From Clostridia bacterium (GTDB lineage: Bacteria; Bacillota; Clostridia; UBA1212; UBA1255), in NCBI GenBank assembly GCA_045546695.1, contig JAZQDE010000052.1, positions 797-64,796 on the forward strand: a stretch of DNA of 64,000 nucleotides, given 5' to 3'. Position 1 is the stretch's first letter. Each line of letters opens with the position of its first letter. The notes beneath the pieces are model-generated. The model was not told where the DNA came from. It saw only the letters and a program-made list of their open reading frames with translations, and did not search any database. Both the position numbers and the translations under genes were made by a program. This document shows positions 8,188 through 20,583 of the stretch, in pieces.

Positions 8188-9018
8188 ATGTATGTTTGCG
8201 GTCTTGTAGGACCAAGCGGTACCGGAAAAAGTCATAGGGCGCTGTGGGTAGCAAAAGAGCACGACATCGATTATATTATCGATGACGGTCTTTTGATATG
8301 CGGCAATGGTATTGTTGCCGGCAAATCTGCCAAGCGTGAAAAAACGAGAGTCGGCGCCGTAAAAACTGCCGTTTTCACTGACGATGATCACACATTTGAA
8401 GTTGCCCAGGCACTTAAGCTCAGAAACGTCGAGAGGCTTCTGATTCTCGGCACATCCGACGGTATGGTGGCAAAGATTGCCAAGCGTCTCGGCCTGCACG
8501 GAATCGACGAGACTGTCTATATAAATGACATTTCCAGCCAGTACGAGATTCAGCAGGCACTCAACACGCGCCGTAATCAGGGTAAGCATGTTATCCCCGT
8601 CCCTACGATGGAACTCAAAAAAGGTTTTTCAGGCCTGATGCTCGACCCGCTTAACATTCTTCAGCGCAAGGGCCTCGGTGATTTTGAAGTTATGGGTGAA
8701 AAGTCGGTTATCCGCCCGACGTACAGCTATCTAGGAAAATATACCATTTCCGATTACACAATTTACCAGCTTTCCGAGCATGCGATAAAAGAAGTAGAGG
8801 GAGTCAGTGTCATCACACGTTTCCGCGCAGAGAAAGCAGAAGATGGCATACGGATTGATGCAGATTTAGTGCTTTTTTACGGATATAACATCCCGGAGCT
8901 CCTGAAAACCGCCAAAAAAGTTGTAAAAACCGAAATAGAAAAATTCACAGCCCTCAATGTGACACGAATCACTCTGACTGCAAAAAGTTTAGTAATGAAA
9001 AAGAAGGAGACTACCTGA
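8188..9018 (+). CDS. P-loop NTPase fused to a C-terminal Asp23/Gls24 domain
   Basis: Walker A GPSGTGKS and IIDDGLL; the C-terminal GKYTISDYTIYQLSEHAIKEVEGV...DLVLFYGYNIPE...VKTEIEKFT resembles Asp23. Confidence 0.75.
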   Translation: MYVCGLVGPSGTGKSHRALWVAKEHDIDYIIDDGLLICGNGIVAGKSAKREKTRVGAVKTAVFTDDDHTFEVAQALKLRNVERLLILGTSDGMVAKIAKRLGLHGIDETVYINDISSQYEIQQALNTRRNQGKHVIPVPTMELKKGFSGLMLDPLNILQRKGLGDFEVMGEKSVIRPTYSYLGKYTISDYTIYQLSEHAIKEVEGVSVITRFRAEKAEDGIRIDADLVLFYGYNIPELLKTAKKVVKTEIEKFTALNVTRITLTAKSLVMKKKETT

Positions 9019-9021
9019 TTT

Positions 9022-9777
9022 ATGAAGGAAACAATTTATACAATTCCTGTAAACGAAGCATACGATGTCAAATGCGAATGTCCGCTTTGCCTTTTAGAAC
9101 ATAGATTTGAAACAGACCGCGTAAATTATTATCTCGGTCCCTCCCTTATGGAGCCGGAAAACCGCATTGAAACAAACAAAAAAGGCTTCTGCGGCAAACA
9201 TTTTTCTATGATGTACAATACTCAGACAAACCGCCTCGGTCTCGGTCTGATTATTGATACGTATCTTCAGGAGCAAAACGAAAAGCTCGAAAAGCTTTTC
9301 AATGACTTTGACCGCGTTGCCGGTGAAAAAAAGTCTCTTTTCGCTTCTTTCAAAGGTTCAAATGCAGCCGATGACGCAGCCACAAAGATTTCAAAGCATC
9401 TTGACAGCCACCTCGATGAATGTTGTATCTGTAAAGATCTGGTATATATAATGGACAGATACGTTGAGATTATCCTCCACCTCTTTTTCAGCGAAAAGGA
9501 TTTCCGTGAAAAATTTGAAAGTGGTCTCGGTTATTGTATCCCCCACCTGAATATGTTAATTAAAGGTAGCGAAAAACATCTCGGGCCTGCCAGACGTTCA
9601 GAATTCCTGACTTCACTTTTTAAGTTACAAAGAGAAAATATGCAAAGAATCCAGGAGGAAGTCAACTGGTTTACGAAGAAATTCGACTATCGTAACAACG
9701 ATGCTCCATGGGGCAATTCAAAAGACAGCATAAGCCGCAGTATCAAAAAAATCACAGGAGCCAAAGAGCTTGAATAA
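9022..9777 (+). CDS. DUF6062 family protein (duplicated Cys/His clusters)
   Basis: MKETIYTIPVNEAY..CECPLC..FCGKH and ECCIC..YCIPH; ends with WFTKKFDYRN..PWG. Confidence 0.75.
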   Translation: MKETIYTIPVNEAYDVKCECPLCLLEHRFETDRVNYYLGPSLMEPENRIETNKKGFCGKHFSMMYNTQTNRLGLGLIIDTYLQEQNEKLEKLFNDFDRVAGEKKSLFASFKGSNAADDAATKISKHLDSHLDECCICKDLVYIMDRYVEIILHLFFSEKDFREKFESGLGYCIPHLNMLIKGSEKHLGPARRSEFLTSLFKLQRENMQRIQEEVNWFTKKFDYRNNDAPWGNSKDSISRSIKKITGAKELE

Positions 9778-10654
9778 TCTTCCGGTTTATATAGTAAATA
9801 ATGTTAAAGATTTTGAACCTGACCACGTTTTTGACTGTGGTCAGGCTTTTCGTTGGGAAAAATTGTCATCAGAAGGTCGTGAAATGTACGTAGGTGTTGC
9901 AGGTGGACACGTCGCAGCCATTTCATACGATGACAAGTCTTATACATTGACACTTGCAAATGTTACCGAAGAAGAATATCTGTCATTCTGGCATCATTAT
10001 CTCGACCTTGATACAGATTATTCTTCAATTAAGGATTCGCTTGCGTTCCTCGATGACAACATGAAACAAGCCGTCGCATATGGTCACGGCATACGACTTT
10101 TGCGCCAGGAATTCTTCGAAACGTTGATTTCTTTCATTATTTCTGCAAATAATAACATTCCGCGTATCAAAAAGTGTATCGAAAATCTTTCGGTAACTTT
10201 TGGAAACAAGATTGATGTGCCGGAGGCTTTTCACCAATATGTGGGAATACATAAAGACTACTATGCTTTCCCCTCCTGGGAGGCACTGTCAAGTGTAACG
10301 CCTGAACAGATAAGTGACGCCTGTAAAGCAGGATACCGCTGTCCGTACATCGTAAAAAGTGCGGAAAATTATGGTAATGCGCTTGCAGGAGGCGTCAGTC
10401 TGCCTGTTACAGAAAAAGAGATTATGCTCTACCCCGGAGTCGGCCCGAAAGTAGCTGACTGCGTGCTGCTTTTCACCGCACAGAACAGAAACGTCTTCCC
10501 TGTTGACGTGTGGGTACGCAGAGTCATGAGCAGACTTTACAATCAGGAAGACTCTATATCAGGCGTGCACAAATATGCCCATGAACATTTCGGCGACTTG
10601 CAGGGGTATGCACAGCAATATCTCTTCTATTACATCAGAAGTCTTGAAAACTAA
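9770..10654 (+). CDS. ogg: 8-oxoguanine DNA glycosylase (OGG_N plus HhH-GPD)
   Basis: FDCGQAFRW, ISFIISANNNIPRI, HhH motif PGVGPKVADC, FPVDVWV and YAQQYLF. Confidence 0.9.
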   Translation: MNNLPVYIVNNVKDFEPDHVFDCGQAFRWEKLSSEGREMYVGVAGGHVAAISYDDKSYTLTLANVTEEEYLSFWHHYLDLDTDYSSIKDSLAFLDDNMKQAVAYGHGIRLLRQEFFETLISFIISANNNIPRIKKCIENLSVTFGNKIDVPEAFHQYVGIHKDYYAFPSWEALSSVTPEQISDACKAGYRCPYIVKSAENYGNALAGGVSLPVTEKEIMLYPGVGPKVADCVLLFTAQNRNVFPVDVWVRRVMSRLYNQEDSISGVHKYAHEHFGDLQGYAQQYLFYYIRSLEN

Positions 10655-11332
10655 TCAAATCAGTTTGAACGTGCCTTCCATATAAAGGATAATAAACAGC
10701 GTAGTAAGTACAATTGTAAGGACTGCGCCTACAACAAGGAGCACCGTCCTGAATCCGAATTTGAATTCTTTTCCTGACGAGTGTATGAGTCTTGCCCGCC
10801 TTAGCGCAGTTATGAGCGGCTTATAAAGCAAGAGCATCAATGACGCATTCATGAGTGCTTTGCTGAGATTAAACGGAAGCAATGTCTTTGCCAGCATATC
10901 GACAACAGCGCTCATATCTGTTCCCATAAAATGGGGCGTTATGAAAAGGTTTGCAAGGAGCATCACTGCCGTCACCGAGAACACCGCTGTAACAGCCGCA
11001 ATCAGCGCGCCGCTGAAGCTCCGTCTGTATTTGTATATCACACCTACCGCCAGCGCAAATGTACCTGTCGAAAGGAAATTCATTATAAATCCGTAAATTC
11101 CTGTATCGCTGACCGTTATCATCTCAAGTAGCGCAACTACAAAAGCAGATATAATCCCCACTATCGGGCCGTTTATTAATGATGAGATTGCTATTATAGC
11201 ATCTTTGAAGTCAAAAGTAAGAAAACTAACCTTGAATCTGAATACAAAAATTGCCAGATAAGCAAGCGCACACAGCATAGCGGCAACGGCAATTTTCTTC
11301 GTGTCGAATAATCTCTTTGTTTGATTTTGCAT
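10655..11332 (-). CDS. ribU: Riboflavin ECF transporter S component
   Basis: Multi-TM S-component sequence (FLTFDFKD, GPIVG, PFNLSKA) directly downstream of an FMN riboswitch. ATG at 11332. Confidence 0.88.
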   Translation of the reverse strand: MQNQTKRLFDTKKIAVAAMLCALAYLAIFVFRFKVSFLTFDFKDAIIAISSLINGPIVGIISAFVVALLEMITVSDTGIYGFIMNFLSTGTFALAVGVIYKYRRSFSGALIAAVTAVFSVTAVMLLANLFITPHFMGTDMSAVVDMLAKTLLPFNLSKALMNASLMLLLYKPLITALRRARLIHSSGKEFKFGFRTVLLVVGAVLTIVLTTLFIILYMEGTFKLI

Positions 11333-11342
11333 AATAAAAACA

Positions 11343-11457
11343 CTCCTTCTCCCGTCCGGACTGTACCGTCGGCTCCGGAATTTGACCGGATCAACCTGCC
11401 ATGCAGGCTCGCGGGCTATACCGCCGGTGAGGATTTGCACCTCGCCCTGAAGACTAT
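11343..11457 (-). ncRNA. FMN riboswitch (RFN element)
   Basis: Minus strand TCTTCAGGGCGAGGTGCAAATCCTCACCGGCGGTATAGCCCGCGAGC...GATCCGGTCAAATTCCGGAGCCGACGGTACAGTCCGGACGGGAGAAGG matches the RFN consensus. Confidence 0.96.
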
Positions 11458-11460
11458 GTC

Positions 11461-11489
11461 ATAATACACCATTATAATATGTAAATCAA
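11461..11489 (-). promoter_or_regulatory. Sigma-A promoter of ribU
   Basis: TTGATT-17 bp-TATTAT immediately upstream of the riboswitch. Confidence 0.7.
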
Positions 11490-11567
11490 GATGAAAATGA
11501 TTACAGATAGTATGCAACTATAATCCTGCCCGCAAATCCTTGTAGGTTTGTCAAATTTTATATTAAC

Positions 11568-11596
11568 TTGCATCGTTTATATATGTATGATACGAT
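11568..11596 (+). promoter_or_regulatory. Probable sigma-A promoter inside the cassette
   Basis: TTGCAT-17 bp-TACGAT, 34 nt upstream of the ATG at 11631. Confidence 0.55.
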
Positions 11597-11630
11597 AAAA
11601 AAATCAACTCAACTTAAAAGGAAGGTCATT

Positions 11631-13112
11631 ATGAAAAATCCTAACGTTATTAATATTGACTTAGCCACCGATATTGCCACCGCAAAATTGCGCGCAAATT
11701 ACGGCAACCCCGCTACAGGCTATTTAGAACCCCAAGCAGACGAGCTTCGTGCTAAAATTTTGAACTCTCCGAATACCGAAGAAATTTACGAAATAAAGGG
11801 GACTAAATACTATGTTTCGGCTAACGGTAACGACGAAAATGATGGTCTTTCTCCTGAAAAGGCAATTTGCTCGATTGATGCCATTGAAAAGCTTCCTTTA
11901 AAGGAAGGTGACGCCGTGCTTTTCGAACGCGGAAGCATTTTCCGTTTTGGTCGCACACTTAATACCACAAACGGTGTTACCTACGGCTCTTACGGCGAAG
12001 GTATGAAGCCTAAGATTTTCGGCTCGCCCGAAAATTATGCCGAAAATGACAGTTGGGTAGAAGTTAAGCCAAACATTTGGCAAATTGCTTTCGATTACCC
12101 TTATGCCAGTGGTTGTATACTTGACTATGGTATGGTTGCAGGCATTCAAAAGTGGAAGGGTATAGACACAATGGAAGCAAACGGCGACTACTACCACGAC
12201 CTTGAAAGCAAGGTTTTCCACCTTTACTGCGACCAAGGCAAGCCTAGTGAAGTTTACCACGATATTGAAATTATGCCCACCGTTTATCTTTTCTTTATGC
12301 GCGGTGCCGAAAACAATATAGTTGATAACATTTGCTTTAAATATACTTCTGCTTTCGCTATTTTTGCACCCGATGCCAAAAGCAACGTTACCATTACAAA
12401 CTGCGAAATTGGTTACATCGGCGGCCTTTGGGTAGGCGGTAAAATCGGTCGGCTTCGCTACGGTAACGCTATCGAAATTTGGGCAGGTATCCCCGGTCTT
12501 GTAATTGAAAACGTTATGGTTAAAAACAACTGGTTCTACCAGACCTATGATAGCGCTCTCACCTGGCAGGGCGACCAAAAGGGTACTGTTTATAGAGACA
12601 TCACATATACCGAAAACCTTTTTGAATATAACAATGCCGATATTGAATTTTTTGACCAAGATACCTCTGTGCTTGAAAACTTCGTAATATCCAAAAACCT
12701 TATGCGCTTTACAAGTATGGGTTGGGGCACCCGCACAAACGACGGTGGTATCCGTGGTATTGAAGGCTGCATCCGTGCTGTTACAGGCAGTTACAGAAAG
12801 AAGGATGACAATTGGGTTAAGAGTGAAATGGACGTTAAAAGTGCATACTTCACCGATAACACTATGGACTCCCCCGCACGCCAAATCATTAACTGGAACG
12901 TTATCCCCCGCCAAAAAGCAAACATTCACGCTTCGGGCAGTACAATCTACGTTAAAAGCGAGTATCGCACCCTTGTTCCCTGTCTTCAAGGCTTGCAGGA
13001 AAATATGTATGACGAGCATTACAACATCCGCTTTGCCGATAACAAGCAAGAGTTAGAAGAAATGCTCCAAAAATTTGAAAAAGGCGCCAAAATTTATTGG
13101 GACGGCGAATAA
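11631..13112 (+). CDS. Right-handed parallel beta-helix (pectin-lyase-like) protein, no signal peptide
   Basis: YYVSANGNDENDGLSPEKA, GDAVLFERGS, ITNCEIGYIGG, GNAIEIW, VKNNWFYQTYD and YTENLFEYN repeats; RBS AAGGAAGG before the ATG at 11631. Confidence 0.75.
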   Translation: MKNPNVINIDLATDIATAKLRANYGNPATGYLEPQADELRAKILNSPNTEEIYEIKGTKYYVSANGNDENDGLSPEKAICSIDAIEKLPLKEGDAVLFERGSIFRFGRTLNTTNGVTYGSYGEGMKPKIFGSPENYAENDSWVEVKPNIWQIAFDYPYASGCILDYGMVAGIQKWKGIDTMEANGDYYHDLESKVFHLYCDQGKPSEVYHDIEIMPTVYLFFMRGAENNIVDNICFKYTSAFAIFAPDAKSNVTITNCEIGYIGGLWVGGKIGRLRYGNAIEIWAGIPGLVIENVMVKNNWFYQTYDSALTWQGDQKGTVYRDITYTENLFEYNNADIEFFDQDTSVLENFVISKNLMRFTSMGWGTRTNDGGIRGIEGCIRAVTGSYRKKDDNWVKSEMDVKSAYFTDNTMDSPARQIINWNVIPRQKANIHASGSTIYVKSEYRTLVPCLQGLQENMYDEHYNIRFADNKQELEEMLQKFEKGAKIYWDGE

Positions 13113-13117
13113 AATGC

Positions 13118-13144
13118 AAAAAGACCGCTTCGGCGGTCTTTTTT
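13118..13144 (+). terminator. Intrinsic terminator of the cassette gene
   Basis: AAAAAGACCGC-TTCG-GCGGTCTTTTTT. Confidence 0.9.
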
Positions 13145-13284
13145 GAAGTAATAAGTAATATGGTTTTTTATTTTCCAATTTAAAGATAACATAAGAAATG
13201 GAACTTCGCTATTTTTTTCAATGTTCGATGTAACACATGTATTGTAAACCTACAAAACTATAATCATGCCCGCAAATCCTGTAC

Positions 13285-13314
13285 TTGACTTTCCCCCTAT
13301 CAAAATGGTAGTAT
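13285..13314 (+). promoter_or_regulatory. Promoter of the pyr operon
   Basis: TTGACT-18 bp-TAGTAT with an extended -10 TG; RBS GGGAG at 13341. Confidence 0.6.
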
Positions 13315-13353
13315 AGCCAATTGGAAAATCAAATATCAACGGGAGTTATTTTA

Positions 13354-14478
13354 ATGGAACAACATACAAATTATAACAGTTTACATAAAGACGAACTATA
13401 CAAGGGACGCTTGCCCCAAGATATTCTTTCCAATCCCAATTATTCAATTTTTCCGGGTTTTATTGATGTTCACGTACATCTTAGGGAGCCCGGTTTTTCA
13501 TATAAAGAAACAATTGCAACAGGTACACGGGCAGCACTTGCCGGCGGATACAGCGGTGTAGCTTCGATGCCGAATCTTAACCCAGTCCCAGACAGCATTG
13601 ATAACCTAAACGTTCAACTCGATATTATAAAAAAAGATGCACTTACTCAGGTATATCCTTTTGCATCAATTACAAAAGGACAAAAGGGGCTTGAGCTTTC
13701 TGATGTTGGCGGTTTACATAATATGGTAATCGGTTTTTCAGATGACGGCAGAGGCGTACAGAGCGACGATATGATGGAAAAAGCTATGAAAGAAGTCAAG
13801 AAATACGACTCAATTATCGCAGCTCACTGTGAAGTAGATAGCCTTGCCCCCACCCCAGAGAGCGAATATCTGCAGCTTGAGCGCGACCTTAAATTAGTAA
13901 ATACAATAAATGTCAGATATCATATGTGCCATTGCTCAACCAAAGAGTCTGTTAACCTCATAAGACAGGCAAAAGCTGCCGGACTTCCCGTAACGTGCGA
14001 AACTGCCCCACACTACCTGATTTTCACGGAAAAAGACGTACAAGACAGCGGAAACTACAAAATGAACCCGCCTATCCGTACGCAAAAAGATAAAGAAGCG
14101 CTTATTGAAGCCATCTGCGACGGAACAATTGATATGATTGCCACAGACCACGCTCCTCATAGCAAGGAAGAAAAATCAAAAGGTTTCGCAGGCAGTCTGA
14201 ACGGCATAGTCGGACTCGAAACGGCTTTCCCGCTGCTTTATACGCACCTCGTAAAGACTCAAGTGATTACACTTGACAAGCTTATCCAATTAATGTCAAT
14301 CAATCCGCGCGAAGTATTCCGCATCAAAAACGACGGACTGTGCGCATTTGACCTGAATCAGAAGTATACAATCAACCCTGATGCCTTTATGACAATGGGC
14401 AGAAGCTGCCCGTACGGAGGCATGGAAGTATATGGCAAACATATAGCAACATCTGTAAAAGGAGCGACCAATGAATAA
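13354..14478 (+). CDS. pyrC: Dihydroorotase (type I, compact)
   Basis: PGFIDVHVHLREPG, MPNLNP, FSDDG, HCE, YHMCHCST, KMNPPIR and ATDHAPH; ATG at 13354 follows RBS GGGAG. Confidence 0.93.
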   Translation: MEQHTNYNSLHKDELYKGRLPQDILSNPNYSIFPGFIDVHVHLREPGFSYKETIATGTRAALAGGYSGVASMPNLNPVPDSIDNLNVQLDIIKKDALTQVYPFASITKGQKGLELSDVGGLHNMVIGFSDDGRGVQSDDMMEKAMKEVKKYDSIIAAHCEVDSLAPTPESEYLQLERDLKLVNTINVRYHMCHCSTKESVNLIRQAKAAGLPVTCETAPHYLIFTEKDVQDSGNYKMNPPIRTQKDKEALIEAICDGTIDMIATDHAPHSKEEKSKGFAGSLNGIVGLETAFPLLYTHLVKTQVITLDKLIQLMSINPREVFRIKNDGLCAFDLNQKYTINPDAFMTMGRSCPYGGMEVYGKHIATSVKGATNE

Positions 14479-15208
14479 TTACACCGTAAAAAGCAATGTA
14501 AATATCGCAAAAGACGTTTACAAAATGATATTAGAAGGCGACGTTTCAAAAATCACCTCGCCCGGCCAGTTTATAAACATCACAATCGACGGTCTGTATT
14601 TAAGACGCCCGATTTCCGTATGTGATATCGGTGAAAATACGATAACTATCATCTACAAAGTTGTCGGCGAAGGCACAGCGAAAATGAGCGGTATGAAAGA
14701 AGGCACAGTACTTGACTGCCTGACAGGACTTGGAAACGGTTTTGGCACACAAATCAAACCGGACTGCAACAAACCTCTGCTCATCGGCGGCGGAGTGGGC
14801 ACTCCCCCTTTATACATGCTTGCAAAAAAACTTCTTAAAGAAGGCAAGCAGCCAAAAGTAATTCTCGGATTTGCATCAAAAGACGACTGTTTCTACGAAG
14901 AAGAATATAAAGCGCTCGGCCTTGAAGTTGAAGTTATGACTGCTGACAGCAGCTACGGTGGCAAGGGTTTTGTAACGAACGCAAAGCTTTTCACGGATAA
15001 AGATTATGACTACATTTATACATGTGGACCGATACCGATGCTCAAGGCAATTTATGACAATTCAGAAGTGTCCGGCCAGTTCTCTTTCGAAGAGCGTATG
15101 GGATGCGGCTTCGGCGCCTGCATGGGATGCTCATGCAAGACAAAATACGGAAACAAACGCATCTGCAAAGACGGCCCTGTGCTGGTTAAGGAGGAAATAA
15201 TATGGTAA
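14471..15208 (+). CDS. pyrK: Dihydroorotate dehydrogenase B electron-transfer subunit
   Basis: PGQFINI, LRRPISV, IGGGVGTPP and EERMGCGFGACMGC...CKDGPV. Confidence 0.95.
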   Translation: MNNYTVKSNVNIAKDVYKMILEGDVSKITSPGQFINITIDGLYLRRPISVCDIGENTITIIYKVVGEGTAKMSGMKEGTVLDCLTGLGNGFGTQIKPDCNKPLLIGGGVGTPPLYMLAKKLLKEGKQPKVILGFASKDDCFYEEEYKALGLEVEVMTADSSYGGKGFVTNAKLFTDKDYDYIYTCGPIPMLKAIYDNSEVSGQFSFEERMGCGFGACMGCSCKTKYGNKRICKDGPVLVKEEIIW

Positions 15209-16113
15209 ATACTAAAGTAAACCTGTGCGGCATAACGATAGACAACCCGATAATACCCGCCAGCGGATGTTTCGGCTACGGAAAAGAATTTTCAGAATTC
15301 TACGACATAAATATGCTCGGCACGTTCTCCTTCAAGGGCACGACTAAGGAGCCAAGATTTGGTAACCCTACTCCCCGTATTGCGGAGACTCCGTCAGGAA
15401 TGATTAATTCAGTCGGCCTCCAGAATCCGGGCGTTGACACAGTAATCAGCCGCGAACTTAAAGAAATGCCTGAATACTTCAATAAAAAGGTAATAGCAAA
15501 CATCAGTGGCTTTTCACAGGAAGAATATGTATATTGCGTAGAGCGCATAAGCCGCGAAGATCAGGTAGGCTGGGTTGAGGTAAATATCAGCTGCCCTAAT
15601 GTTCACGGCGGCGGTATGAGCTTCGGCGTAAACCCCGACAGCGCATACGAAATAACAAAAGCAGTCAAAGAAGTTTCAACAAAGCCTGTTATTATCAAGC
15701 TGTCACCTAACGTTACAGACATCGCAGCGATCGCAAAAGCATGCGAAGACGGTGGTGCGGACGGCATATCATTAATAAATACAATTCTTTCAATGAGAAT
15801 TGACATCGCAAAGAGAAAACCAATTCTTGCCAATACATTCGGCGGCCTGTCAGGAAGCTGCGTGCTGCCTGTTGCGCTCAGAATGGTTTATCAGGTATAT
15901 AACGCGGTAAAAATTCCAATTATTGGCATGGGCGGCGTTACGACAGCAAAAGATGTTTTAGAAATGATGCTTGCAGGTGCGACGGCAGTTCAGGTCGGCG
16001 CAGCAAACCTGATTAATCCCTATGCCTGCAAGGAAATAATCGAAGAATTACCAATTCTTATGGAAAAATATAAAATCAACAGTTTAGAAGACATTATAGG
16101 AGGAGCACACTAA
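15202..16113 (+). CDS. pyrD: Dihydroorotate dehydrogenase B catalytic subunit
   Basis: ASGCFG, KGTT, NSVGLQNPG, EVNISCPN, KLSPNVT, LINT and GGLSG. Confidence 0.95.
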   Translation: MVNTKVNLCGITIDNPIIPASGCFGYGKEFSEFYDINMLGTFSFKGTTKEPRFGNPTPRIAETPSGMINSVGLQNPGVDTVISRELKEMPEYFNKKVIANISGFSQEEYVYCVERISREDQVGWVEVNISCPNVHGGGMSFGVNPDSAYEITKAVKEVSTKPVIIKLSPNVTDIAAIAKACEDGGADGISLINTILSMRIDIAKRKPILANTFGGLSGSCVLPVALRMVYQVYNAVKIPIIGMGGVTTAKDVLEMMLAGATAVQVGAANLINPYACKEIIEELPILMEKYKINSLEDIIGGAH

Positions 16114-16808
16114 TGGGAAAAGATGTAATTATCGCCTGCGACTTTGCGTCAAAAAAAGACACACTTGAGTTTCTGGACAAATTTACTGATGTAAAGCCTT
16201 TCGTTAAAATCGGAATGGAACTTTATTATGCAGAAGGTCCTGATATTGTAAGAGAAATCAAAGCAAGAGGACACAAGATTTTCCTCGACCTTAAGATGCA
16301 TGATATACCAAATACTGTAAAAAAAGCTATGCGCTCTATCGCATCATTCGGTGTTGATATGACAAACGTACACGCAGGTGGCGGCATCGCAATGATGCAG
16401 GCTGCTATGGAAGGTCTGGACGGCAAAGCTATTCTGATTGCCGTGACACAGCTTACTTCAACAAGCGCCGAGACACTCAAAAATGAGCTCCTTATCGATG
16501 CTTCAATGAACGACACAATTCTCACCTACGCAATCAACGCCAGCAAAGCAGGACTCGGCGGCGTAGTATGCTCACCACTTGAGAGCACAATGATTCACGA
16601 ACATTTCACAAAGGAAAACATTCCTTTTATAACAGTTACACCGGGAATCCGTTTCGCAGACAGCAGCAAAGATGACCAGTCACGCATCACAACACCTGCC
16701 GTTGCAAAAGAAATGGGTTCAGATTACATCGTAGTCGGCAGGCCGATTACTCAGGCACAAGACCCTGTCGCAGCTTACAAAAGATGCGTAGCAGAATTTG
16801 TAGATTAA
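16113..16808 (+). CDS. pyrF: Orotidine-5'-phosphate decarboxylase
   Basis: FLDLKMHDIPNT, AVTQLTS, VTPGIR and VVGRPIT. Confidence 0.96.
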   Translation: MGKDVIIACDFASKKDTLEFLDKFTDVKPFVKIGMELYYAEGPDIVREIKARGHKIFLDLKMHDIPNTVKKAMRSIASFGVDMTNVHAGGGIAMMQAAMEGLDGKAILIAVTQLTSTSAETLKNELLIDASMNDTILTYAINASKAGLGGVVCSPLESTMIHEHFTKENIPFITVTPGIRFADSSKDDQSRITTPAVAKEMGSDYIVVGRPITQAQDPVAAYKRCVAEFVD

Positions 16809-16823
16809 TGGAGGATTTTCACA

Positions 16824-17462
16824 ATGAAAGAACAAATTGCACTTGACTTATTAACTATCGGCGCCGTTTTCCTGCGCCCTGACCAGCCTTTCACATGGGC
16901 AAGCGGCATTAAAAGCCCTATTTACTGCGACAACCGTCTCACGCTCACCTCTCCTGAGGTACGCACACACGTAGAGACAGGCCTGGCTCAGCTTATCCGT
17001 GAAAATTATCCTGAAGCAGAAGTCCTCATGGGCACTTCTACAGCAGGCATCGCACACGCTGCAATCACAGCACACATGATGAACCTTCCCATGGGTTACG
17101 TTCGCTCCGGCGCAAAAGACCATGGCAGAAATAACCAGATAGAGGGAAAACTCCTCCCCGGCCAGAAGGTTGTAGTTGTTGAAGATCTCATCTCAACAGC
17201 CGGCAGTTGCATCGATGTTGTAGAGATTTTAAGAGAAGCCGGCGCCGAAGTGCTCGGTATCGTAAGCATCGTAACGTACGGCCTTAAGAAAGGCATTGAG
17301 CGTCTTGAAAAAGCTAATGTAAAGAATATCAGCTTGACAAACTTTGATACAATTGCAAAAGTTGCAGCTGACAAAGGCTTCATCGCACAAGACGACATTG
17401 CAAGAGTAATCGCCTTCCGCAACAACCCTTCAGATGAAAGCTGGATGAGAGGTAATAACTAA
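16824..17462 (+). CDS. pyrE: Orotate phosphoribosyltransferase
   Basis: [14 protein letters not shown] and [13 protein letters not shown]. Confidence 0.96.
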
Positions 17463-18379
17463 TGAGACACGTACTTGATATTACAGATTTATCAGTTAGC
17501 GAGATAGAAGAGCTCATTAATGTAGCACAGGATATTATTGCAAATCCGGATGACTACCGCGAAGTGTGTAAACATAAAAAGCTTGCCACCCTTTTCTTCG
17601 AGCCAAGCACAAGAACACGCCTTAGTTTTGAAGCTGCAATGTTAGACCTCGGCGGAAACGTACTTGGTTTCTCATCTGCCAACTCTTCCTCCTCTGCCAA
17701 AGGCGAGAGTGTTGCAGATACAGTACAGACAGTAAGCTACTACGCAGACATCATCGCTATGCGCCATCCAAAAGAAGGCGCTCCGCTGGCTGCTTCTTAC
17801 GTTTCAAACGCACCGATTATAAATGCGGGCGACGGCGGTCACTGCCACCCGACACAGACGCTGACTGACCTACTTACTATCTACCGTGAAAAAGGCCACC
17901 TCAGCAATATGACGATCGGTTTTTGCGGCGACCTCAAATTCGGCCGCACCGTACACTCACTTGTTACGGCTTTATCAAGATACGAAGGCTTTAAATTCGT
18001 ATTTATTTCACCGAGCGAGCTTATGATCCCCGGCTACGTAAAGGCAAACGTACTTGATAAAAACGGTCTTAGCTATATTGAAACAGAATCTCTTACAGAC
18101 GTAATGCCCGAGCTTGACATTCTCTACATGACAAGAGTACAGGGCGAGCGCTTTTTCAACGAAGAAGACTATATCAGACTCCGTGATAAATATATCCTCT
18201 CCCCTGACAAGCTTACGAATGCCAAGGATGATCTTGCAATCCTGCATCCCCTGCCGCGAGTAAACGAGATTGCCCGTTCAATCGACAAAGACCCGCGCGC
18301 ATGCTACTTCAAGCAGGTACAAAATGGTAAATTTATCAGAATGGCTCTCATAATGAAGCTTCTGGGCCTGAGCAAATAA
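17462..18379 (+). CDS. pyrB: Aspartate carbamoyltransferase catalytic subunit
   Basis: [34 protein letters not shown] and [10 protein letters not shown]. Confidence 0.97.
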
Positions 18380-18391
18380 GGAGGTATTGAA

Positions 18392-18820
18392 ATGATTGTT
18401 GACCAGATTGAAAACGGAATAGTATTGGACCACATCAAAGCCGGCTATAGCATGCTCATATACAGGTACCTCGGTCTTAACGACTTAGACTGCACAGTTG
18501 CCATAATCAAGAATGTAAAAAGCAGCAAAATGGGTAAAAAAGATATCATTAAAATCGACTCTATTATCGATATCAATTTTGACATTCTGGGCTATATTGA
18601 TGAAAATATCACTGTTAATGTTATCCGAGACGGCAAGCTCGTAAGCAAACAGCAGCTCGAGCTCCCCCAGACGCTTGTAAACGTTATCAAATGTAAAAAC
18701 CCAAGATGTATTACATCTACAGAGCAGGAGCTCGACCAGAGATTTATTCTTACGGATAAAGGTGAAAAGACGTACCGCTGCGCATATTGCGAGACAGAAT
18801 CTGACAGTCTGAAAATCTGA
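18392..18820 (+). CDS. pyrI: Aspartate carbamoyltransferase regulatory subunit
   Basis: GIVLDHIKAG, GKKDIIK, and Zn site KCKNPRCIT...YRCAYCE. Confidence 0.95.
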   Translation: MIVDQIENGIVLDHIKAGYSMLIYRYLGLNDLDCTVAIIKNVKSSKMGKKDIIKIDSIIDINFDILGYIDENITVNVIRDGKLVSKQQLELPQTLVNVIKCKNPRCITSTEQELDQRFILTDKGEKTYRCAYCETESDSLKI

Positions 18821-18822
18821 TT

Positions 18823-20583
18823 ATGACGATAAATGACACTTTTTACCAGCTCCCCCCCGGAGCTATAAAAACTACAGGAATTTTTGATGACCTTCTTACG
18901 CTTGTTTCAGAAAACACGCTTAAGAAGGTCAATTTTCGCACTTTAGCCGATTATTACAGAAATAAATCGGATCAATTTGCCACCGGCGAGTTCTGGGGAA
19001 AGCTGATGCGCGCCGGCTGCCTTACGTACAAATACAACCGCGACCCTGAACTCAAAGCAATTCTCGACGAAACAATCGCAGACATGCTCTCAATCCAGCT
19101 TCCAGATGGCTGTATCAGCACTGTTCCGCGTGAAAAGCAGCCCCAAGGTACGCATGGCTCTGATCTTTGGGAGCGCAAATATGCCCTGCTCGGCCTTCTT
19201 TCATATTATGAAATAACAGGCAGACAGGACGTACTTGCTGCCATCACCAAAGCGGCCGATTATACAATCGCCCAGGTAGGTAAGTCCCCTAAAACGCCGA
19301 TTACCGACACAGGCTGGGCTTTTTGTGGCATTGAATCCTCATCAATCTTAGAGCCGATTGTCAGAATTTACCATATCACAGGTGAAAAAAGATATCTTGA
19401 CTTTGCAACGTATATTGTAGAAAGCGGCGCGTGTAGTCGTGAAAATCTTTTTGAAAGTATCTACGCCGGCAAAGACCCAAAAGACATCGGCAACAACGGC
19501 ATACCGGAGCAAAGCATTGCCAAGGCATACGAAATGATGTCATGTTTTGAAGGCCTTATAGAATACTACCGCGCAACCGGCATAGAAAAGTGGAAAGAAA
19601 CAGCTCTTATTTTTTACAACAAGCTTTTGGAGCAAGAGATTACTCTGCTCGGTTCAGGTGGCGCAGATGCCCCGTACAACCTCGGCCCCGGCACGGGCGA
19701 GCAATGGAATTATACAAGGTATGAGCAGACAAATCCTGACATTACTCTTATGATGGAAACGTGCGTCACTGTTACGTGGATGAAGCTTTGTTATCAGCTT
19801 CTGCGCCTTACGGGTGATGCTACCATCGCCGACGAAATTGAGCGAAGCTGCTATAATATTTTAATCGGCGCAATCCGCCCCGACGGCAGATTTTTTGAAT
19901 ATTTTCCAAGATTTAACGGCATCAGGAATCCAAAAGTGAATTATAGCTTCAATATTGATGGTTTTGACCTGAGTTGTTGCACTGCAAACGGCCCCTCCGG
20001 CCTCGCACTCGTGCCTTTTACCGCTTACATGAACAGCAAAAACGGCCCCGTAATACAGTTTTACATTTCTGCAGAAGTTGATTTTGACCTCCCCTGTGCC
20101 GGTAGTGCAAGATTGAAGACTCAATCAGAATATCCGGCATCAGGCTGTTTTTCTGCCATTTTTTCACAGGTGAAAACAAGCCACCCCTTCTCAGTTCACC
20201 TGCGCGTCCCCGCCTGGTGTGACAGCTTCAACGTAAAAGTAAATGGTAAAAAATGTAATATAAAGACTTCGCCCGGATCGTATGCCGTAATTACCAATAA
20301 CTGGCAATCCGGCGACACAATTGAGGTAGACATGGAGCTTCCTGTCAGATTTTTTGACTCACCGCACGGCTCCAACAGACTCGGTGACAATCTTTTTGCA
20401 GTAATGCGCGGGCCCATTCTGCTCGCCCGCGACGCAAGACTTGCTGATTCTGACGACGTCAGGTGCATGGTTCGCACAAAAATAGTCACCGCAAGCGGTG
20501 ACTCGGTTGAAATGATTGATTATGCCTCCAGCGGCAGCACGTGGGATGAAAAATCAGAATTTGCGTGCTGGCTGAAGAAATAA
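18823..20583 (+). CDS. Glycoside hydrolase family 127 (beta-L-arabinofuranosidase-like, DUF1680), cytoplasmic
   Basis: GEFWGKLMR, KAYEMMSCFEG, GEQW, METCVTVTW, SCCTANG, LRVPAW and RGPILLA; the Glu/Cys catalytic set of GH127 is present. Confidence 0.85.
   Translation: MTINDTFYQLPPGAIKTTGIFDDLLTLVSENTLKKVNFRTLADYYRNKSDQFATGEFWGKLMRAGCLTYKYNRDPELKAILDETIADMLSIQLPDGCISTVPREKQPQGTHGSDLWERKYALLGLLSYYEITGRQDVLAAITKAADYTIAQVGKSPKTPITDTGWAFCGIESSSILEPIVRIYHITGEKRYLDFATYIVESGACSRENLFESIYAGKDPKDIGNNGIPEQSIAKAYEMMSCFEGLIEYYRATGIEKWKETALIFYNKLLEQEITLLGSGGADAPYNLGPGTGEQWNYTRYEQTNPDITLMMETCVTVTWMKLCYQLLRLTGDATIADEIERSCYNILIGAIRPDGRFFEYFPRFNGIRNPKVNYSFNIDGFDLSCCTANGPSGLALVPFTAYMNSKNGPVIQFYISAEVDFDLPCAGSARLKTQSEYPASGCFSAIFSQVKTSHPFSVHLRVPAWCDSFNVKVNGKKCNIKTSPGSYAVITNNWQSGDTIEVDMELPVRFFDSPHGSNRLGDNLFAVMRGPILLARDARLADSDDVRCMVRTKIVTASGDSVEMIDYASSGSTWDEKSEFACWLKK

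Follow-up and report, generated by a model that had tools for sequence, protein, structure and literature searches.

How does a complete gene unit come to lie between long direct repeats when it carries no enzyme that could have placed it there? The question is raised by a 1.7-kb insert between ribU and pyrC in a 64,000-nt stretch of a Clostridia bacterium genome (contig JAZQDE010000052.1, positions 797 to 64,796; hereafter the window). An earlier note, made from the letters of the window alone, had described this insert as a mobile single-gene cassette that is mobilised in trans by an unidentified enzyme making long staggered cuts. Here, we find that its two ends belong to a large group of insertion sequences (ISs), and we consider it very probable that the insert consists of IS481-type ends with the normal target duplication of that group, the transposase gene between them having been replaced by a passenger gene. 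The whole account, namely that an IS481-family element inserted at the pyrC promoter, that its interior was replaced in situ by the passenger and that the remainder is now a probably immobile shell, is a longer chain of events and is, in our judgement, moderately probable. What looked like a mobile cassette lacking an enzyme would thereby become an explained object, an IS shell with a captured gene.

The direct repeat and the empty site

The insert is bracketed by a direct repeat whose two copies are spaced 1740 nt apart (11516-11540 and 13256-13280). The repeat had previously been given as 24 bp at this place, and it is refined here to 25 nt because a T comes after both copies; therefore, the left tip of the element is TGTAGGTTT, starting at 11541, and the right tip is AAACCTACA, ending at 13254. 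Two copies of the 24-mer stand in the window, against none in 100 shuffles, and TTGTAGGTTT together with its complement is restricted in the window to 11540-11549 and 13246-13255, where 0.15 occurrences are expected. The features of the repeat are the following.

11516..11540, no strand: left copy of the target-site duplication, AACTATAATC[C]TGCCCGCAAATCCT (mismatched base in brackets), present as a single copy in the empty sites L001-L004, L007 and L008
13255, no strand: additional A separating IS tip and duplication, polymorphic and missing in contigs of metagenomes X1, X5 and X6
13256..13280, no strand: right copy of the target-site duplication, 25 bp

The C at 11526 is the sole mismatch between the copies and is private to this genome, A being found there in eight metagenomes and in five other occupied contigs. 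Both junctions are spanned in independent assemblies, by a 4.7-kb contig (X4) and by a 2.7-kb contig with both repeat copies (X8), so that the structure is not an assembly artefact, a possibility that the earlier note had named as refuting its reading.

An exact match of the window's RibU protein to contigs gave ten places, at six of which (L001-L004, L007, L008) the site is empty, with a ribU-pyrC gap of 281 nt as compared with 2021 nt, and with one copy of the 24-mer followed by TGTACTTGACT, precisely the arrangement that had been predicted for an uninterrupted site. The remaining four (L005, L006, L009, L010) are occupied, and samples of one and the same study hold both alleles. The empty alleles are shorter than the occupied ones by exactly 1740 bp, which upholds the proposal of an insertion with target-site duplication. 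An exact-protein look-up for the passenger and for PyrC found no contigs encoding either. As a separate observation, the identical-RibU strains (L001-L008) share 98.7-99.5% identity with the window on the ribU side (9000-11540) and 92-97% on the pyr side (13257-19000), and the two flanks of the site appear to have been shuffled by recombination.

The 24-mer itself varies among the empty alleles, (G/A)ACTATAATCAT(G/T)CCC(G/T)CAAATCC, while the occupied alleles all have AACTATAATCATGCCCGCAAATCC on both sides, apart from the private C of this genome. The exact pre-insertion 24-mer that would be predicted (A at position 1 plus ATGCCCGC) is not among the six empty alleles, which carry G...ATGCCCGC or A/G...ATTCCCTC. 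Its absence would agree with the reverse history, in which the insert was there first and was later removed from the empty alleles by a precise deletion across the 25-bp repeats, and RecA-independent deletion is possible at a perfect repeat of this length. However, deletion leaves the origin of the repeat unexplained and still requires a transposition event; the 24-mer varies among the empty alleles, as is expected of an old undisturbed site, whereas the occupied alleles share one version; and IS481/IS3-type elements are thought to use a copy-out-paste-in route, presumably without donor excision. We therefore regard the deletion history as improbable and continue with insertion into an empty site.

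Ends of the insert and their parent insertion sequence

The origin of the ends became apparent when Logan contigs of goat, pig and bovine gut metagenomes were aligned over the region. Contig depth over the last 40-80 nt of the insert is 200-320, as against 5-20 around it, and contigs exit at 13253-13257 into many unrelated flanks, with a sharp outer boundary at 13254/13255. The 21-mer CACATGTATTGTAAACCTACA (13234-13254) is present, with 66 different flanks, in 73 contigs of bioreactor, human-gut and rabbit metagenomes and had no match in the viral collection; a 26-mer at 13219-13244 gave 0 matches in the metagenome scan because that stretch is variable among IS copies.

The full IS copies are 1067-1075 bp long and have one open reading frame (ORF) of 311-315 aa. 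One end is TGTAGGTTTGTCAAACATATGTTACAC and the other ...GTAACACATGTATTGTAAACCTACA, forming 26-27-nt inverted repeats that start with TGT (TGTAGGTTT...), and the ORF reads inward from the GTAACACATGTATTGTAAACCTACA end, starting about 95 nt from the tip. By ISfinder convention, the right end of the insert in the window is thus the left inverted repeat (IRL, transposase-proximal) and its left end is the right inverted repeat (IRR).

13159..13254, minus strand: transposase-proximal IS end, comprising the 26-nt IRL at 13229-13254 (TGTAGGTTTACAATACATGTGTTACA on the minus strand) and about 70 nt of leader
11541..11555, plus strand: transposase-distal IRR remnant, TGTAGGTTTGTCAAA, with 15/15 matches followed by divergence, keeping 15 of 27 conserved nt

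The IRL of the window matches the consensus of 28 distinct ends at 26/26 positions, and the leader is identical to that of intact IS copies in the same metagenomes and ends just before the ribosome-binding site (RBS) and start codon of the transposase. On the other side, the IRR consensus TGTAGGTTTGTCAAACATATGTTACAC, built from 20 distinct ends, is followed through the remnant only, the conserved inner block CATATGTTACAC being missing from the window. Inverted repeats are hence present where the earlier note had placed them, but they are not the 10-bp repeats that it described, since a full IRL with leader stands at the right and a truncated IRR at the left. As it had also stated, the insert contains no transposase, integrase or recombinase, and no homologue of the parent transposase was found anywhere in the 64-kb window.

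In L051 and other relatives, the IS ORF matches the NCBIfam model transpos_IS481 (E=2.9e-63, 214 bits) far ahead of IS21 (79 bits, the next best) and ISNCY_2 (29 bits). It has the Pfam domains rve, rve_3 and HTH_28, the last an N-terminal helix-turn-helix (HTH), and the annotated plasmid relatives (tblastn, 25-35% identity) all belong to the IS481 family. Judged by these matches, the parent element can be assigned to the IS481 family, as an IS with a DDE (rve-domain) transposase, and the mobilising enzyme that had been called unidentified is one of a DDE transposon group to which the ends belong. The group comprises at least 7,999 transposase clusters (90% identity, E<1e-30), many of them on contigs of about 1.07 kb, and is found in very high numbers in Firmicutes from guts and bioreactors.

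The flanks and the transposase also bear on other ways in which such a structure could be integrated. With its direct repeat placed around inverted sequences, the insert looks like an element between attL and attR, and the 24-25-bp repeat might be taken as their core, left by a circle that a tyrosine or serine recombinase, or Xer, had integrated. However, the same terminus adjoins at least 66 different flanks, duplications elsewhere have unrelated sequences, elements with these ends encode a DDE transposase and no recombinase, and the 24-mer is found nowhere else in the window; flank diversity rules out an att core, to which we leave hardly any probability. Casposon-like integration by Cas1, with a long target duplicated as in CRISPR repeat duplication, has the length of the duplication in its favour and nothing further. 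The IS with these ends has an rve-type DDE transposase as its only gene, no associated Cas1 is found, and casposon duplications measure 14-15 bp compared with 25-26 bp here, so that the identity of the parent IS rules this mode out, its probability being practically nil. Integron attC sites, Xer/dif, IS110 with its bridge RNA and IS30 (IS1630) were dropped as well, given the diverse flanks and the IS481-type transposase.

Several further observations concern the IS group. Internally deleted copies resembling miniature inverted-repeat transposable elements retain both ends (L078, 427 bp; L050, 706 bp), and L065, L082 and L077 consist of the IRL and a leader of 65-85 nt only, resembling the right remnant in the window. 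In intact leaders (e.g. L021, L030, L032) the transposase RBS/start region is paired in a hairpin with a distal segment ahead of a T-run (GCGAGGATACTCC...GAGTCTATCCTCGCTTTTT), and this hairpin probably shields the transposase gene from outside transcription; the window retains the distal hairpin arm alone (13195-13216). In the consensus of L021-L113, an outward-facing TTGACA lies in the IRR and an inward-facing TACAAT in the IRL, each 8 nt from the respective tip. Were the two tips to meet with 0-2 nt in between, these hexamers would make up a junction promoter driving the transposase gene, a hallmark of copy-out-paste-in elements. At 13220-13227 and 13248 of the window, the IS remnant shows the variants A>T, T>G and G>A in runs X1, X4, X5 and X6, on contigs joined to pyrC; their likeness to the IS variant L032 suggests that the remnant has undergone gene conversion with other IS copies.

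Target duplication and promoter spacing

Duplications of 25-26 bp were found at eight independent sites of the IS group, the window included, at which the two flanks of a copy match each other as parts of one locus.

L047: duplication of 25 bp
L063: duplication of 26 bp
L046: duplication of about 26 bp, degenerate
L094: duplication of 25 bp
L096: duplication of 26 bp
L101: duplication of 26 bp, with one mismatch
L104: duplication of 25 bp
Window: duplication of 25 bp

Wherever a duplication is present, a -35-like hexamer follows it on the IRL side after a gap of 4 nt. When 66 unique IRL flanks were scanned for promoter-like sites, defined by at least 8 of 12 consensus positions and a spacer of 16-18 nt, the -35 lay at an offset of 29, 30 or 31 from the IRL tip in 19, 23 and 15 calls, respectively (57 in total), and at any other offset in 0-5; 38 of the 66 flanks have a promoter-like site at this distance. 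On long contigs, the transposase gene and its neighbour on the IRL side are transcribed divergently in nearly all cases. The window fits the spacing of the group exactly, its order being IRL tip, 25-bp duplication, GTAC and the TTGACT of the pyr promoter.

13281..13314, plus strand: pyr-operon promoter, consisting of the 4-nt spacer GTAC, the -35 TTGACT (13285-13290), an 18-nt spacer with TG and the -10 TAGTAT (13309-13314)

A duplication of about 25 bp is therefore the normal footprint of the IS group, made by its DDE transposase, and the long staggered joins that the earlier note had postulated are about 25 bp long in the window, as in the seven other insertions. A duplication around transposase-less ends was sought in L025, L029, L043, L056, L077, L079, L082 and L084 and none was found, nor was a second passenger-carrying derivative identified among the transposase-less ends examined. 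Apart from this, L066:1-2200 holds two IS copies in the same orientation that lie exactly 25 nt apart, one duplication length, the downstream copy being followed by a promoter at the usual offset.

Duplicating the segment from about -40 to -64 leaves the promoter its native upstream region, and it is plausible that insertion is nearly neutral for this reason. We propose, tentatively and with slightly more doubt than confidence, that this IS481-type clade measures its insertion point from a sigma-70-type promoter, with the IRL facing the promoter; that strand transfers occur 4 bp upstream of the -35 and 25-26 bp further upstream; that the duplication restores the upstream (UP-element) region while the transposase gene points away; and that the clade, of which the cassette in the window would be a by-product, thereby constitutes a second, independently evolved promoter-targeting transposition system beside TnGBS/ISLre2. 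No description of IS481-type promoter targeting was found in the literature searched, which did not cover ISfinder entries.

Oriented insertion upstream of sigma-A promoters has been described as unusual and as specific to TnGBS, ISLre2 and ISKra4, whose transposases are Mutator-like and whose insertions lie 15-17 bp from the -35 (PMC3942029). The IS group resembles them in its promoter-targeted insertion, but its rve/IS481-type transposase is of an unrelated superfamily, and its IRL tip lies 29-31 bp upstream of the -35 instead of 15-17 bp. The duplication made by TnGBS is about 9 bp. Within the IS481/IS1202/IS481EU supergroup, duplications fall into discrete classes of about 4-6, 15-17 and 24-29 bp, the mechanism being unknown (PMC10045372; bioRxiv 10.1101/2022.12.17.520857). 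The single rve-type DDE transposase with an N-terminal HTH, the length of about 1.07 kb and the TGT ends are shared with the IS481 family, including ISKpn27 and ISKpn28; the duplication of 25-26 bp, however, exceeds the 2-15 bp, mostly 6, of the IS481 entries in ISfinder (PMC10045372). With the IS1202 subgroup, the IS group has in common a DDE transposase related to IS481/IS3, TGT ends and Firmicutes hosts, but members of that subgroup are 1.32-1.99 kb long with transposases of 400-500 aa (bioRxiv 10.1101/2022.12.17.520857), as against 1.07 kb and 311-315 aa. The IS1202 subgroup makes very long duplications of 27-28 bp (24-29 bp in ISfinder), and some of its members carry passenger genes (bioRxiv 10.1101/2022.12.17.520857; PMC10045372); the 25-26 bp of the IS group lie inside the ISfinder range and outside the 27-28 class, in a comparison by published description. 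Promoter targeting is not reported for the IS1202 subgroup in bioRxiv 10.1101/2022.12.17.520857. In sequence and size the IS group is IS481-like, but its duplication is of the long class.

The element in the window is itself of an ordinary kind, a variant of known IS shells, and the parent IS group is the more interesting by-product, as it unites two unusual properties, a 25-26-bp duplication and oriented insertion at a base-pair-fixed promoter spacing. The origin of the duplication classes of about 5, 15 and 25 bp is an open question (PMC10045372), for which a small and abundant transposase of 311 aa with a defined target landmark would be a convenient system; if the proposal is true, the group would be a natural case for how IS481/IS1202-type transposases make staggered joins of about 25 bp. 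A possible tool is promoter-proximal insertion that leaves the gene intact, and the cassette shows that a cargo of 1.6 kb can sit between such IS ends.

The passenger and a proposed history of the shell

Between the IS remnants lies one gene unit, of which the promoter-like site, coding sequence (CDS) and terminator are present as the earlier note had read them.

11548..13158, plus strand: passenger unit, with a promoter-like site at about 11563-11596, an RBS at about 11618-11625, the CDS at 11631-13112 and a terminator at 13118-13143

The CDS, the one long CDS in the insert, encodes 493 aa and is followed by a strong terminator. Pfam gave a weak Beta_helix match only, and an AlphaFold2 model from 53 homologues (pLDDT 94.9) is a right-handed beta-helix. 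Foldseek matched this model to glycoside hydrolases and lyases of beta-helix fold (GH120 XylC, GH136 lacto-N-biosidases, BT_1002 and GH110) with a probability of 1.0 and TM-scores of just 0.3-0.4, and because of these low scores we call the passenger a putative carbohydrate-active enzyme, beta-helix glycosidase-like and of unassigned specificity. Its family consists of uncharacterised proteins of about 480-550 aa in Clostridia (metagenome-assembled genomes (MAGs) of Acutalibacteraceae and Ruminococcaceae; 710 matches). In MAGs of Acutalibacteraceae, Ruminococcus and Clostridia (L016, L017, L018), homologues with 58-68% DNA identity follow one another head to tail, 2 to about 9 at a time, and represent an expanded beta-helix family of uncharacterised function.

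The passenger was probably acquired horizontally. Its G+C content is ordinary, and its relative synonymous codon usage has the largest distance of the 49 genes in the window; the preference for CAA as Gln codon that had been noticed by eye is borne out by a CAA:CAG ratio of 11:3 against a pooled 26% CAA. The closest relative (P0001) is 95% identical in aa and 94.6% in nt over window positions 11548-13159, and lies between genes for Dus and an M50 peptidase (L011, L012); a second (P0002, 84%) has a sigma-factor gene on one side and the same M50 peptidase gene on the other (L013). Neither repeats nor inverted tips are present at these loci. The L011-type locus was seen in six of the eight metagenomes that bear the cassette, and because it is missing from X4 and X6 it need not share an organism with the cassette.

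The comparison with L011 also locates the joins. Homology to its unit starts within the IRR remnant, at TTGTCAAATTTT, and the left join therefore lies in an 8-bp microhomology, TTGTCAAA (11548-11555), which is common to the IRR remnant and to the sequence upstream of the closest homologue of the passenger. The right join between passenger and IS falls within 13146-13172 and cannot be placed to the base.

Based on these findings, we propose the following history. An IS481-family IS of about 1.07 kb would have inserted upstream of the pyrC promoter with its IRL towards the promoter, through two strand transfers 25 bp apart, the promoter-side one 4 bp upstream of the -35 hexamer, and gap repair would have produced the 25-bp duplication. 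Subsequently, the interior of the IS, from nt 16 of the IRR to just before the transposase RBS, could have been replaced by the foreign gene unit of 1.6 kb through illegitimate, microhomology-mediated joins, the left one within the 8 bp of TTGTCAAA and the right one within a short, ambiguous overlap. The outcome would be a transposase-less and probably immobile IS shell, which persists as a presence/absence polymorphism and may move between lineages with its flanks by homologous recombination. Replacement in situ, after insertion, appears the more likely order of events because just 15 of the 27 conserved IRR positions remain.

Alternatively, shell and passenger could have been assembled elsewhere and transposed together into the ribU-pyrC spacer by the transposase of an intact IS, using the full IRL and the 15-nt IRR stub. 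The canonical duplication and -35 spacing mean that transposase chemistry acted on whatever lay between the tips, the TGT/ACA termini are kept at both tips, intact IS copies with an identical end are present in the same metagenomes, no intact IS was seen at the ribU-pyrC site, and mobile insertion cassettes (MICs) such as MIC231 are known. However, the IRR is truncated and lacks its inner block, the cassette is confined to a single site in the eight metagenomes and five contigs, and its copy in a second species came with near-identical flanking DNA. MICs of the Bacillus cereus group have both complete inverted repeats, occur in several copies and are mobilised in trans. The insert is like them in that IS ends and a parent-typical 25-bp duplication surround a non-transposase gene without a transposase, and differs from them in the completeness of its inverted repeats, with an IRR of 15/27 nt, and in copy number, with one known site. 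Because of the truncated IRR, mobilisation as a cassette is doubtful, and we consider such a transposed cassette unlikely, although with more weight than the deletion history discussed above.

The distribution of the insert is consistent with the in situ history and with an immobile shell. In the eight metagenomes, which come from several host species, nothing but the ribU flank adjoins the left end of the insert at 11541, and the five other occupied contigs all have the same site; circle joints, empty-site joints and other cassette flanks were absent from the contigs of the eight runs, which cannot show rare molecules. In L019, from the GTDB representative MAG RGIG7689 of water-buffalo rectum (L019:1-2198, aligned to window 9842-12039), ogg and most of ribU are about 75% identical to the window, identity rises to 89% across 11042-11141, and from about 11140 onwards it stays at about 96-100% per 100-nt bin, a stretch that takes in the 5′ part of ribU, riboswitch, repeat and cassette. 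L019 is either an interspecies recombination tract that carries the insert with its flank or a chimeric contig. That the insert reached a second species along with at least 400 bp of its flank speaks for homologous recombination and against transposition, and the truncated IRR, the single site and the flank in L019 together argue that the structure spreads by descent and homologous recombination. The mobility proposed by the earlier note is therefore probably not correct.

Five points weigh against the account preferred here. The transposase score of 214 bits is marginally below the curated NCBIfam cut-off for IS481, 224. Most full IS copies in short-read metagenome contigs lack a duplication, for which we assume chimeric assembly across the repeat; this holds for some at least, as L097 and L099 carry the right flank of L094. 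No intact IS was found at the ribU-pyrC site in the identical-RibU contigs and the eight metagenomes, which leaves the in situ order as an inference. Replacement in situ requires two illegitimate joins. Finally, no true donor of the passenger came to light; at the DNA level, its best match reaches 94.6% identity.

As for the neighbouring genes, ribU, to the left of the insert, encodes the S component of an energy-coupling factor (ECF) transporter (Pfam PF12822), and pyrC with the pyr-operon promoter lies to the right. Two further features precede ribU.

11489-11461, minus strand: ribU promoter-like site
11340-11458, minus strand: flavin mononucleotide (FMN) riboswitch upstream of ribU (Rfam RF00050, 106 bits), the sole Rfam match in the window

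The insert sits between two housekeeping promoters and disturbs neither.

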